Virus record (IMG/VR): IMGVR_UViG_3300022921_000003
DNA length: 64,000 bases
Strand: one strand, 5' to 3'
From: an uncultured virus (IMG/VR IMGVR_UViG_3300022921_000003)
Taxonomy: Duplodnaviria > Heunggongvirae > Uroviricota > Caudoviricetes
The notes under the pieces were generated by a model. The model made no database searches and had not been told where the DNA came from. It was given only the letters and a program-made list of their open reading frames with translations. Positions 36,345 to 47,676 of the stretch are shown one piece after another. The translations under genes and the position numbers were made by a program. Numbering within the stretch: position 1 is the first letter of the stretch; every line of letters begins with the position of its first letter.

Positions 36345-36610
36345 TTGGTGGGTGATTCTGTTGCTAGGACACCCACCGAAACCCCGACACTTACTGCTTA
36401 CGCAGCAAGGGCCATTGGTGCAAAATTATCGTTTGCATTTACTATAGTGGTCTATACGCGACCAACCGTGTAACTCCGAATTCCTATTAACTGCCCGTCG
36501 ATCCTAGTTCGCCCCCCTCAGAAACACACTCAGTAAATGTGCTTGTGGTGGAGGCGGCGGGTACTGCCCCCGCGTCCAGTACAGCGTTGAGTCATCATCA
36601 ACGTTACCTG
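36345..36610 (-). ncRNA. ssrA: Circularly permuted two-piece tmRNA
   Basis: Acceptor piece ending GCGGGGGCAGTACCCGCCGCCTCCACCA (3' end 36546) precedes coding piece starting GGGGGCGAACTAGGATCGAC (36516); tag 36436-36398 encodes ANDNFAPMALAA-stop. Confidence 0.92.
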
Positions 36611-36954
36611 TTATATATAACACTTTTTCCTTTGAGAGTCAAGGAACTTTTTGTCGCCTTATCCTTATTCACAAATTCCACATCTTTACCTGACCCAATA
36701 ATACATGCATTACCATTTGCAAAAGATTCAATGATGGTAATTCCAGTGTCTCCAACGTACATTAGATTGACAGTATTGTTATCGGGGTCAGACCAATACG
36801 CATATGGCTCTTCACCTAGATTTGTAACTGCACCCAGAACAATGTTTAACGGCGCACAGAGAACTGGTTTCTGCGTTTGAAAGAAAGATGGTGGTTCCTG
36901 TGCAAAGGTTGATGTGCTAAGCAGCAGTGCTGTTAGGAATGTTAGATACTTCAT
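36604..36954 (-). CDS. Secreted hypothetical protein
   Basis: Signal peptide; KPVLC and ACIIG.G motifs. Confidence 0.6.
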   Translation of the reverse strand: MKYLTFLTALLLSTSTFAQEPPSFFQTQKPVLCAPLNIVLGAVTNLGEEPYAYWSDPDNNTVNLMYVGDTGITIIESFANGNACIIGSGKDVEFVNKDKATKSSLTLKGKSVIYNR

Positions 36955-45659: not shown

Positions 45660-46034
45660 TTATTTCCCTAGTCCTTGGTTATACGCCTCATTCTCTAGAC
45701 GGCGTTGCATTTCTGCGTTTCTCTGTGCAACACCTTTTTGACATGCGGCATATGCACCCTCATTACTCTTATAGTCTGAACAGACATCTGCACCAACTTC
45801 TTTGTAGATGACAGTCTGTTTCTGATCCATACTCTGACCAACTGAACTACCAGCAACTGCACCAATTAGAGTGCCGACACCAGTTGCAATCAGTCTACCA
45901 CTACCACCACCGACTTGACTTCCTAGAAGTCCACCAGCACCAGCACCGATAAGTGTTCCACCAGTTTGATTGTTCATCTGACAAGCAGTTAGACTTGCAA
46001 GAAGAACACCCGATACTACAATCGACTTAAGCAT
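45660..46034 (-). CDS. Glycine-zipper 2TM lipoprotein
   Basis: Lipobox LTAC; GTLIGAGAGGLLGSQVGGGSG glycine zipper. Confidence 0.8.
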   Translation of the reverse strand: MLKSIVVSGVLLASLTACQMNNQTGGTLIGAGAGGLLGSQVGGGSGRLIATGVGTLIGAVAGSSVGQSMDQKQTVIYKEVGADVCSDYKSNEGAYAACQKGVAQRNAEMQRRLENEAYNQGLGK

Positions 46035-46485
46035 TTGCTTCTCCTTCTTCTGAGTAGTATACATTCTTTAGTTCAAATAAGTCAATGCACTTTTGGCATC
46101 CACTACAAGGTTTCGACAAACCAGTAATCCATTTACGATTTGTCTTGTTTCTCTTTGCCCTCACAATATATAGTTCACACTTCGACAGGTCGTCAACATC
46201 GACAGACTTGAGTGCATTCTTGATTGCATGGACTTCTGCATGAAAGAAGACAGCATGATTGTTCTTACAGAACTGAGCCTGAAAGGGATGTGTCTTCTTA
46301 TGATTATATCCGTAGGAAATGACTTTACCCTTGCGTACCACGGCGGCAGCAATTCTTGCACCACGGACAGGTTCTACTGACTGTGCAAGTCGAAAAGTCT
46401 CATCGAAGATTTCAGAGTTCACCCTCACCTCACCAGCCTGGTGCACCGTAGACTCTGTCTTTCCTATAAGCCACACTCCAGTCAA
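46027..46485 (-). CDS. Cytidine/deoxycytidylate deaminase family protein (start uncertain)
   Basis: HAE and SKPCSGC zinc motifs. Confidence 0.8.
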   Translation of the reverse strand: MTGVWLIGKTESTVHQAGEVRVNSEIFDETFRLAQSVEPVRGARIAAAVVRKGKVISYGYNHKKTHPFQAQFCKNNHAVFFHAEVHAIKNALKSVDVDDLSKCELYIVRAKRNKTNRKWITGLSKPCSGCQKCIDLFELKNVYYSEEGEANA

Positions 46486-46750
46486 GTCCCATTGCAGGAC
46501 AGATGAAAACGGTATCAGGTAATCCGTTATTATCTATCTCACCTGCCTCACCAGAGATAAAGAAATGACCTGACTTCTCTGGAAATGCCTTACATAGAAT
46601 CTGGGTGATACGAATATCCTTTTCCCTTGCCTTTGCAAGATCAAGACATGCGTCACGCAACCACGCTTCCATAGTCGGGTCAATGTTCTTCTGATTGAGA
46701 CATTGACGGATTAGGTATTCTGCGTTATTGATGAAATCCTGTGTGTTCAT
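46430..46750 (-). CDS. Hypothetical protein
   Basis: FI.GE.G..D.NGLP....ICPA.G motif; SD GAGG. Confidence 0.6.
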   Translation of the reverse strand: MNTQDFINNAEYLIRQCLNQKNIDPTMEAWLRDACLDLAKAREKDIRITQILCKAFPEKSGHFFISGEAGEIDNNGLPDTVFICPAMGLDWSVAYRKDRVYGAPGW

Positions 46751-46935
46751 TATTCAACCTCACTCATCTACTTCTCGCTCCCAAAAACGACAATAAAAAT
46801 GATCACCGCATGAATCTATTTCATGCTGTGGATAACCATTCTCAACAAGCCATTTCTCTGTATCCTTGATACCTTCTGGCAATTCTTTTGGAAATCCATA
46901 CTTCCAACCAGAAGGTGGATCAATAATTAAAATCT

Positions 46936-47376
46936 TCATCCTCGCCTCATCTTTGCAACTTCTTCAGCAGACTTCTTGTTACGAATCGGCACTGCATTGG
47001 ATTTATGCATCTGGGCAATACCGATAATCTCTGTGCCGGTATAGACCTTCTCTTCTTTCTTTGCCATCGTAGGATTGTAGAATTGGTCGGAGCGAGAGGA
47101 TTCGAACCTCTGATCTCCACATCCCAAATGTGGCGGATTACCAGACTTTCCTACGCTCCGTTTGTTGGCGCTCTCGACAGGACTCGAACCTGTGACCCAC
47201 GGTTTAGAAGACCGTTGCTCTATTCCAGCTGAGCTACGAGAGCCTACCCCCATGCGTTTGAGGAACTTCTCATGTTCCTTCTCTGACGCAATTAGGGACT
47301 TAGATTTCTTGGATTTCTTACGCTTCTTCGTATTCGTAGTCGAATAGTAAGAAGGCAATAGATGCATTCCACTCAT
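46936..47376 (-). CDS. Conserved phage protein whose central linker is encoded by two tRNA genes
   Basis: Protein-like termini (MHLLP.Y..TT...HEKFLKRMGV; YTG..IIGIA.MHKSNAVP...AKMRRG); open frame through both tRNAs; promoter TTGACA-17-TATTGT. Confidence 0.7.
   Translation of the reverse strand: MSGMHLLPSYYSTTNTKKRKKSKKSKSLIASEKEHEKFLKRMGVGSRSSAGIEQRSSKPWVTGSSPVESANKRSVGKSGNPPHLGCGDQRFESSRSDQFYNPTMAKKEEKVYTGTEIIGIAQMHKSNAVPIRNKKSAEEVAKMRRG
47084..47160 (-). tRNA. tRNA-Pro(UGG)
   Basis: CGGAGCG acceptor; CCACA-TT-TGG-GA-TGTGG anticodon arm; GGTTCGAATCC; CCA. Confidence 0.93.
47166..47243 (-). tRNA. tRNA-Arg(UCU)
   Basis: GCTCTCG acceptor; ACGGT-CT-TCT-AA-ACCGT anticodon arm; GGTTCGAGTCC; CCA. 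Confidence 0.93.
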
Positions 47377-47408
47377 ATGAATAACAATATACTAGTTGGA
47401 GGGATTTG

Positions 47409-47639
47409 TCAAGATACTTTGTTAGTCTCGTTAACACTCTTAGCAATGATGTCAGAAATTAGGATAAGTTCCTTCTCACCATTCTCATCAGTCTTGGTCC
47501 AAATGTAACCTTCCTTCTCTAAATTAGAGAGTAGGGCTTCAATCACATCAGTCAAGTCGTTGCGTGTTGACCAGCGACCAGCATAGTATGCTCCAGCAAT
47601 ACATGCAACTGCGATTAGTGTGTGAGTTAGTACGTCCAT
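47409..47639 (-). CDS. Small membrane protein
   Basis: N-terminal TM segment; SD GAGG. Confidence 0.6.
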   Translation of the reverse strand: MDVLTHTLIAVACIAGAYYAGRWSTRNDLTDVIEALLSNLEKEGYIWTKTDENGEKELILISDIIAKSVNETNKVS

Positions 47640-47676
47640 AAGTAACCTCTATCCGATTCTACATACCCAATATACA

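Follow-up and report, generated by a model that had tools for sequence, protein, structure and literature searches.

The DNA analysed here (the window) is a stretch of 64,000 nucleotides (nt) from an uncultured virus of the Caudoviricetes (IMG/VR record IMGVR_UViG_3300022921_000003), in which an open reading frame (ORF) of 146 amino acids (aa) contains two complete transfer RNA (tRNA) genes, tRNA-Arg(UCU) and tRNA-Pro(UGG), on its own strand (Table 1). The same DNA seems to serve both as tRNA and as protein code in a group of uncultured T4-like phages. Rfam model RF00005 scored 68.6 bits for tRNA-Arg and 65.7 bits for tRNA-Pro, with a gathering score of 29. Exactly five stop triplets (three TAG and two TAA) occur in the 160-nt tRNA block, none of them in the phase of the ORF; the other two phases of the block contain two and three stops. 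After the second tRNA the frame runs through a short trailer to an inner ATG, and the terminal TGA of the ORF shares bases with the ATG that starts the following gene (ATGA). The -10 box of a putative promoter ends 7 nt before the ATG of the ORF, which is a leaderless geometry. A first-pass annotation made from the letters alone had described two intact tRNAs with encoded CCA and a 5-nt spacer lying in frame within the ORF, stop triplets that all fall out of frame, and a TTGACA-17-TATTGT promoter belonging to the gene; ARAGORN, Rfam and the ORF itself bear out the first two points, and the promoter sequence match was likewise found in place.

Table 1 Features of the tRNA-bearing locus and of its surroundings, in window numbering; the gene, both tRNAs and the promoter are all on the minus strand
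Feature	Position	Strand	Basis or remark
ORF of 146 aa, phrog_27048 family	46936..47376	-	Open across both tRNA genes
Putative sigma-70-type promoter, TTGACA-N17-TATTGT	47384..47412	-	Consensus match only
N-terminal coding part MSGMHLLPSYYSTTNTKKRKKSKKSKSLIASEKEHEKFLKRMGV, 133 nt	47244..47376	-	Doubles on the RNA as 5' leader to the tRNA precursor
tRNA-Arg(UCU), 78 nt, CCA encoded, codons read GSRSSAGIEQRSSKPWVTGSSPVESA	47166..47243	-	ARAGORN (tct), Rfam RF00005
Inter-tRNA spacer, 5 nt	47161..47165	-	Belongs to the frame; same 5 nt in all Arg+Pro architectures
tRNA-Pro(UGG), 77 nt, CCA encoded, codons read RSVGKSGNPPHLGCGDQRFESSRSD	47084..47160	-	ARAGORN (tgg), Rfam RF00005
Trailer, 16 nt, from tRNA-Pro to the inner ATG	47068..47083	-	In frame (..QFYNPT); sequence
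Inner ATG (MAKKEEK)	47067-47065	-	
C-terminal domain MAKKEEKVYTGTEIIGIAQMHKSNAVPIRNKKSAEEVAKMRRG	46939..47067	-	Begins at the inner ATG; tblastn, invariant columns
RNA-library contig X2 record 9	46700-47414		
RNA-library contig X1 record 4	47083-47674		
RNA-library contig X4 record 26	46980-47204		
RNA-library contig X3 record 18	47024-47197		Has the 3-nt trailer variant
Early-type promoter, example	42459-42431	-	
Early-type promoter, example	42031-42003	-	
Early-type promoter, example	23300-23272	-	
Early-type promoter, example	22251-22223	-	
dCMP/cytidine deaminase-fold protein	46030-46485	-	PF00383 E 1e-11; phrog_174
CHASE2/cyclase protein, 692 aa	49373-51448	-	Pfam E 2e-39 (CHASE2) and 3e-16 (cyclase); phrog_35576 E 2e-169
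Transfer-messenger RNA (tmRNA)	36347-36646	-	RF01849 142.6 bits, RF04321 112.7 bits

Protein family of the tRNA-bearing gene

Both coding flanks of the tRNA block were assigned to one protein family. The phrog_27048 profile matched the window ORF with an E-value of 8.2e-16 over residues 4-145 (profile positions 3-127 of 127). In tblastn searches, the C-terminal 43 aa matched the C-terminal end of longer proteins (111-135 aa) in four named phages: Delftia phage PhiW-14 (gp114, 131 aa), Acidovorax phage ACP17 (113 aa), Phage C48C1 (111 aa) and Synechococcus phage BUCT-ZZ01 (an unannotated ORF). These four proteins have the same N-terminal basic helix and C-terminal domain, but none of their genes contains a tRNA. 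The N-terminal 44 aa used alone gave no tblastn match. A hidden Markov model (HMM) of the N-terminal part and linker, built from 121 tRNA-free members with the C-terminal domain left out, matched these residues with an E-value of 2.6e-6, while the next-best of 1114 window ORF segments reached 0.5. Since both flanks match the family, they are the two ends of one family protein. The first-pass annotation had linked the flanks to a small phage protein family, which proved correct, and the separate searches it proposed for the N- and C-terminal parts both led to the same family, in which the halves form one gene.

The tRNA-free members (113 of the 120 MHKSNAVP-pattern loci listed) are single polypeptides of about 110-150 aa with the same two ends. 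Their layout comprises an N-terminal MxMHL motif followed by a basic patch and a helix, a loosely conserved middle, and a C-terminal YTGT..GI..MHKSNAVP..MRR domain. Residues Y112, G114, G119, M123-P130 and M143 of the window protein are invariant in 100 sequences. The semi-conserved middle motif of most tRNA-free members, R....YPSL.T..G, is absent from the window protein, and tRNA-encoded residues stand in its place. The proposal that a linker had been replaced by tRNA genes is supported; the middle of the tRNA-free members is unstructured.

In cultured phages the family was found in four genomes only, in a collection from which records near the window may be masked, and the tRNA-bearing clade was met in metagenomic contigs only. 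Direct nucleotide and protein searches of the cultured phages with the window locus gave tRNA-driven matches only. With the window protein, Pfam gave no match, the best hit of a PDB sequence search had an E-value of 0.47, the sole match in the ESM Atlas was a viral cluster without a name (0.83), a wide VIA-align search with the window model gave no Z of 2 or more, Foldseek against the PDB found nothing at E 0.001 or better, and BFVD returned uncharacterised family members only.

C-terminal domains (..YSGDYITGLATMHKSNTVPVGRG..MRRN) were also seen in stop-to-stop frames of 56-68 codons with no ATG before the domain, at loci L022 and L025 (1003-1170), L023 (97-264), L034 (187-390) and L036 (1003-1206). 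These short frames could be split, frameshifted or oddly initiated forms.

Conservation of the reading frame across relatives

A protein database search returned many full-length relatives of 141-181 aa. However, protein databases contain open frames only, and the relatives were therefore sampled at the DNA level, blind to the upstream frame. The first sample was anchored on the downstream neighbour gene of 59 aa (80 loci); all eight complete tRNA-bearing family loci in it are open, including a divergent lineage with tRNA-Pro alone (L071, L076). The second was a scan of viral contigs with a DNA pattern for MHKSNAVP (at least 120 loci), in which seven of seven tRNA-bearing loci are open and none of the 120 matches listed combines a tRNA within 600 nt upstream with a closed frame. 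The third used a DNA pattern for GI[AG]QMHKSNA in viral and metagenome contigs (at least 238 loci, 210 of them non-duplicate). The pattern scans need an intact C-terminal core, and their counts hold among the matches listed and are not exhaustive. In the third sample, one to three tRNAs lie inside an open frame at 139 loci (94 complete and 45 end-cut), two loci have a tRNA upstream and a closed frame, and 69 are without a tRNA. A tRNA situated just upstream of the C-terminal core is thus inside the open frame in 139 of 141 cases. One exception (L424) is a short standalone gene for the C-terminal domain with an unrelated tRNA-Ser upstream; the other (L377) is weighed below. The first-pass annotation had named two findings that would refute its reading, namely halves belonging to unrelated or separate genes in relatives and frames closed across the same tRNAs in close relatives, and neither attempt at refutation succeeded.

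The frame has been kept over a varied cargo. The complete loci carry at least 13 sets of tRNAs (Ala; Ala+Leu+Thr; Ala+Thr; Arg; Arg+Ile+Pro; Arg+Met; Arg+Pro; Leu; Met; Pro; Pro+Thr; Thr; Trp), and at least five further sets occur in end-cut loci only and may be partial views. In total, at least 42 architectures were distinguished in the two pattern scans, and within each cargo class the lengths of leader and trailer vary in multiples of 3 nt only. Trailers after tRNA-Arg measure 47, 50, 56 or 59 nt, and Ala-Thr spacers 4 or 7 nt; the window trailer differs from that of relatives by a 3-nt indel (FYNPT vs VFYDPS; AAC insertion). The record nearest to the window, a 67.5-kb fragment, has the same three tRNAs and one uninterrupted copy of the family gene. 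At two loci (L230 and L384) decayed tRNA remnants are no longer called by ARAGORN and the frame is still open, which argues that the frame is selected independently of tRNA function.

The residues encoded at L230 and L384 still resemble the tRNA-Arg- or tRNA-Pro-derived peptide. At three other loci (L329, L330 and L376), ARAGORN placed a 'tRNA-Ile(tat)' of 92-96 nt between tRNA-Arg and tRNA-Pro. Its length is atypical for tRNA-Ile, and this putative tRNA occurs in two length variants and in two different reading phases.

The probability of an open frame was estimated from control tRNAs of the same loci (n=29), of which 28% of phases are open. This value is an upper bound because at least three of the 29 controls are themselves nested copies from loci of the first sample, and it corresponds to a chance of about 8% for the two-tRNA window. 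For randomly phased nested blocks, the probability that all are open is at most 5e-7 over 17 configurations, a figure that uses the nested, already stop-poor sequences themselves; the same chance for the 13 complete cargo sets is about 2e-5 by arithmetic. It is the relatives, rather than the window by itself, whose sequences argue for a frame kept open more often than by chance. A chance ORF or annotation artefact was considered and rejected in view of the homologous flanks, the conserved frame and the ratio of nonsynonymous to synonymous substitution rates (dN/dS) of the leader.

Selection on the protein and on the RNA

In 44-45 distinct relatives with tRNA-Arg as the first tRNA, the rough dN/dS of the 44-codon leader is 0.11 in frame, as opposed to 1.45 and 1.55 in the shifted phases. 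The trailers after tRNA-Arg and tRNA-Pro gave values of 0.09-0.125, and the C-terminal domain 0.05-0.08.

The nested tRNAs bear the marks of selection on RNA structure. Compensatory double changes were found in 14 of 22 pairs of tRNA-Pro (28 distinct nested copies; 99.8% of pair cells canonical) and in 8 of 21 pairs of tRNA-Arg (32-33 distinct nested copies; 99.6% canonical), as well as in 11 of 19 pairs of nested tRNA-Thr and 10 of 23 pairs of nested tRNA-Ala. Across the nested tRNA types, canonical pairs make up 98.4-99.8% of pair cells, 87 of 88 distinct nested sequences encode CCA, and anticodons are conserved within each type.

The two demands meet at the stop triplets. When read in the phase of the gene, non-nested tRNA-Arg(UCU) has stops at the variable loop as well as in the D-loop. 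In the nested tRNA-Arg, by contrast, the D-loop is one base longer, which puts the TAG out of phase, and TGG, CAG or CGG stands where the non-nested copies have TAG. Nested tRNA-Thr avoids in-phase stops relative to its non-nested copies in the same manner. At one locus (L386) the family gene hosts a tRNA-Leu, and a near-identical tRNA-Arg outside the gene has an in-phase TAG. Two layers of selection appear from these sequence patterns, one visible in tRNA covariation and the other in frame retention, 3-nt indels and stop avoidance. Protein-level selection on the tRNA-encoded residues themselves is inseparable from the tRNA constraint.

At the same locus (L386, 984-1380), a gene of 80 aa downstream of the family gene enters the non-nested tRNA-Arg by about 24 nt and then stops. 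This is an ordinary partial overlap, unlike the full nesting beside it.

Inner start, predicted structure and origin of the nested tRNAs

An in-frame ATG follows the last tRNA, within a (D/N)(P/S)SMAKK motif, in 86 of 114 distinct loci among the matches listed. In the remaining 28 there is no in-frame ATG, and 23 loci have neither ATG, GTG nor TTG; an inner start cannot therefore be the only route to the C-terminal domain. A 3' piece with a start of its own is possible in most lineages, judging by these motifs.

The effect of removing the tRNAs was calculated for 146 locus entries, comprising the 139 of the third sample and the seven of the second (four of these seven are the same contigs as in the third). 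Removal of the whole block shifts the frame in 78 of the 146 entries, including the window with its 160 nt, and is a multiple of three in the other 68; removal of the tRNAs only shifts it in 84. Since removal of the block breaks the frame in these entries, an unbroken frame requires that the nucleotides of the tRNAs be counted as codons.

AlphaFold2 (AF2), run on the window protein with an alignment of 100 sequences, predicted an N-terminal helix at residues 26-41 (block values of the predicted local distance difference test, pLDDT, of 88-90), a mostly tRNA-encoded middle without secondary structure (block pLDDT 41-65), and a C-terminal beta-hairpin and helix (block pLDDT 75-86). The same layout with an unstructured middle was predicted for a tRNA-free relative. 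In these models the tRNA-derived residues behave as a linker.

A FastTree phylogeny of the concatenated N- and C-terminal parts of 204 sequences placed all 87 tRNA-bearing sequences in one clade of 90 with a support of 0.90, the other three members being L230, L384 and L392. By parsimony, tRNA presence changed four times and the cargo at least 35 times. The clade and these counts point to one origin followed by repeated in-frame turnover of the cargo.

Promoters and transcripts

A promoter of the kind seen at the window locus precedes 31 of the 73 tRNA-bearing relatives for which 80 nt of upstream sequence was available. In 30 of these 31 it lies at a spacing of 6-7 nt, which holds over the Arg, Pro, Ala, Thr and Ala+Thr classes. 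Of the tRNA-free relatives, 49 of 108 have a promoter, which mostly lies 23-35 nt upstream. The other tRNA-bearing loci adjoin an upstream gene, and many relatives are start/stop-coupled to one. All of these promoters are consensus matches rather than mapped starts. Contigs of four metatranscriptome libraries bridge the borders between coding and tRNA sequence (Table 1). The habitats in which the locus occurs in RNA libraries are salt marsh and estuary. Skipped or joined forms were not seen in the contigs of these libraries, but contigs drop rare variants, so that their absence has no evidential value.

About 20 strong early-type promoters occur on the minus strand of the window. Many have the form TTGACA-N14-TGGTATAGT and near-identical downstream leaders (TAGACATAATCAGAGAG..). 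Unlike the promoter of the tRNA-bearing gene, each of these TTGACA-N14-TGGTATAGT promoters precedes a leader that is about 25 nt long and contains a Shine-Dalgarno sequence. Promoter and leader together look like a repeated cassette.

Interpretation and alternative explanations

We consider it likely that selection keeps the frame across the tRNAs, that this frame is translated and that the locus is a genuine dual-coding gene. Both flanks come from one family, changes of cargo have left the frame intact in nearly all relatives, and purifying selection acts separately on the protein parts and on the tRNA stems. The core proposal of the first-pass annotation, a dual-function RNA with tRNAs in a coding linker, is supported by the common family of the flanks and by the open frame at 139 of 141 loci among the matches listed.

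The gene would be an early gene of T4-like phages whose product has a basic helix at the N-terminus, a conserved beta-hairpin-helix domain at the C-terminus and a disordered stretch between them. Within one clade, this disordered stretch would have become a landing site for tRNA genes, whose nucleotides are read as linker codons. Unprocessed transcripts would be translated through the tRNA sequence to give the full-length protein, and RNase P together with 3' processing would free the tRNAs from the same transcripts, so that each RNA would be split, in time or in number, between protein and tRNAs. In one possible order, ribosomes trailing the polymerase on a leaderless or upstream-coupled message would pass before the tRNAs fold, and processing would come afterwards. 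In the roughly three quarters of lineages that have an inner ATG, the processed 3' fragment could yield the C-terminal domain by itself. The likely reason for the choice of site is that a disordered linker is one of the few sites in a packed, coupled early operon that can take, in frame, an RNA gene of about 80-260 nt without interrupting translation. The conserved flanks would double as homology arms for the exchange of cargo among phages.

A further elaboration makes the linker a dedicated docking site for tRNAs and the gene a gauge that gives protein first and tRNAs afterwards, with the flanks as recombination arms, ribosomes starting on a leaderless 5' AUG, and the phage's own alpha-type tmRNA clearing the non-stop 5' fragments by trans-translation. 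Protein output would then report the speed of tRNA processing in the host and its need for tRNAs. In this extended form the proposal seems unlikely. The coupling of tRNA supply to protein output and the rescue of non-stop fragments by the phage tmRNA, both put forward in the first-pass annotation, are speculative.

Several observations weigh against a translated dual-coding gene. Translation across the tRNAs is something that we infer from sequence comparison. The window taken singly is compatible with chance (about 8%), and the set of control tRNAs is small. The pattern scans cannot sample decayed copies in lineages that lack an inner ATG, and L377, which has no inner ATG, is frameshifted between its tRNA-Arg and the C-terminal part. 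The inner ATG is itself kept in 86 of 114 loci, and standalone short forms (L424 and a BFVD entry of 69 aa) show that the C-terminal domain does not need the N-terminal part to work. The dN/dS ratios are rough because synonymous differences are near saturation (a proportion of about 0.6-0.67), and the trailer after tRNA-Thr gave a value of 0.50 (n=7). The predicted template modelling scores of the AF2 models, 0.23 and 0.32, offer no evidence of contact between the N- and C-terminal parts. The tree is approximate, being a FastTree reconstruction from about 90 residues. The RNA-library contigs may derive from DNA carry-over and show neither ends nor strand.

A rival reading is selection for the transit of ribosomes and not for the protein. 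Transit might protect against polarity or Rho termination, maintain downstream coupling, or set the timing of tRNA folding and processing, and the fused polypeptide would have no function as a unit. The ATGA overlap with the next gene, the start/stop-coupling of many relatives to the upstream gene and the lack of any AF2 sign of contact between the two ends all fit such a role. However, transit would tolerate a change of frame, or a stop at any point ahead of the inner ATG, whereas the N-terminal frame always enters the frame of the C-terminal domain. Moreover, in the tRNA-free members the same two ends belong to a single polypeptide, and both ends are under strong purifying selection. We regard selection for transit as a quite improbable basis of the conserved frame.

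It is highly improbable that an ancestral gene was split by the tRNAs, such that only the tRNAs and a short C-terminal protein started at the inner ATG work while the N-terminal part is a relic serving as tRNA leader and the open frame is accidental. The homology of the N-terminal part to tRNA-free members and the leader dN/dS, 0.11 in frame as against about 1.5 in shifted phases, speak against a relic. Against an accidental frame stand the 139 of 141 loci open over at least 13 cargo sets, the 3-nt-step indels at both tRNA borders and the avoidance of in-phase stops by the nested tRNAs; and 28 of 114 loci (matches listed for both counts) offer no inner ATG for the short protein. In favour of such a split are the inner ATG in the other 86, the standalone C-terminal forms (L424 and the BFVD entry) and the promoter geometry, which would suit a tRNA precursor promoter; it is also compatible with the roughly 8% chance that the window by itself is open.

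The remnants at L230 and L384, unrecognised by ARAGORN in an open frame, raise the idea that the nested elements in general are exapted tRNA fossils, that is, tRNA-like stretches without tRNA function kept as linker code. This is barely credible for the group, as a linker without RNA function would not keep cloverleaf pairing, and the nested copies have compensatory stem changes, 98-99.8% canonical pairs, CCA in 87 of 88 sequences, high Rfam bit scores and anticodons conserved per type.

RNA ligases are common in T4-like phages, and this fact and the chemistry of processing ends alone prompted the idea of an intron-like excision, in which RNase P and RNase Z would cut and an RNA ligase would rejoin the flanks into a tRNA-less messenger RNA (mRNA). 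We give it next to no credence, and excision with religation was rejected on the block length classes, since block removal would shift the frame in 78 of 146 entries and tRNA-only removal in 84; in addition, the contigs of the four RNA libraries, which drop rare forms, contain no joints.

Comparison with known systems and significance

Transcription units in which tRNAs share a promoter and primary transcript with coding RNA are known, as in the thrU-tyrU-glyT-thrT-tufB operon of Escherichia coli and the T4 tRNA cluster, and RNase P separates the products. In units of the tufB type, the tRNAs lie outside the coding sequences, whereas those of the dual-coding gene lie inside the ORF and are counted as codons. 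In tmRNA, roles of tRNA type and messenger type reside in separate domains of one molecule, and the tRNA-like part is not translated. The proposed RNA resembles tmRNA in uniting the two roles; here, however, the same nucleotides carry both. Many mycobacteriophage records show a hypothetical protein and a tRNA-Leu or tRNA-Trp under the same match, which at first sight resembles the ORF over tRNAs seen here. Spurious ORFs over phage tRNAs have no homologous flanks and no conserved frame, both of which are present here.

The closest precedent found is in isopod mitochondria: some mitochondrial tRNAs of Armadillidium vulgare are embedded entirely inside mRNAs and completed by 3' editing (PMC11571959, citing Doublet et al. 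2015). As far as that account goes, the two systems are alike in that tRNA genes lie wholly within protein-coding transcripts on the same strand, so that one RNA serves two products. Unlike the isopod case as described there, the present one concerns a phage of 40% GC and about 150 kb, full-size canonical cloverleafs with encoded CCA, a disordered linker, and a cargo that was turned over many times with the frame kept. Literal full-text searches of limited scope turned up no description of tRNA genes nested in frame in phages or bacteria, which is no proof of absence, and passages of a paper on pelagimyophage genomics (PMC7029224) describe none. The occurrence of a tRNA within an mRNA is therefore already known; what is new is the type of host, the complete canonical tRNAs and the frame-preserving turnover of cargo.

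Annotation practice, like most thinking on how bacteria and phages express their genes, treats tRNA genes and protein-coding genes as mutually exclusive. More than 100 divergent phage lineages nevertheless keep canonical tRNA genes within a frame, and each replacement of cargo respected that frame. The comparison singles out this locus as a hot spot at which abundant aquatic myoviruses acquire tRNAs. If translation is confirmed, ribosomes would routinely read sequences that fold as tRNAs, a single transcript would be divided between RNase P processing and translation, and disordered protein linkers could host RNA genes in tightly packed genomes. The locus would then offer a natural system for the race among co-transcriptional folding, processing and translation, as well as a template for compact engineered cassettes of tRNA plus protein. 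The findings suggest that pipelines barring overlap of coding sequences and tRNAs miss or truncate such genes.

Genomic setting and other features of the window

The window represents a T4-like early/nucleotide-metabolism region, with 82 of 93 ORFs on the minus strand. It also encodes a T4 RNase H homolog, a 2-oxoglutarate-Fe(II) oxygenase and a dCMP deaminase; a protein of the dCMP/cytidine deaminase fold lies three genes downstream of the tRNA-bearing gene (Table 1). The 692-aa protein listed in Table 1 combines a CHASE2 sensor with an adenylate/guanylate cyclase catalytic domain and is, from its domain matches, an apparently unusual signalling cargo for a phage.

The window further encodes a tmRNA of the alphaproteobacterial permuted two-piece type, for which ARAGORN gave the tag peptide ANDNFAPMALAA. 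A tmRNA of this alpha type hints at an alphaproteobacterial host. Among five records only, a sample too small to be informative on a link with the nested tRNAs, it was found above the cut-off in one of two tRNA-bearing records (the other had a sub-threshold 22 bits) and in one of three tRNA-free records. A similar tmRNA is present in a related tRNA-bearing fragment (G002) and in a tRNA-free record of 343 kb (G006).

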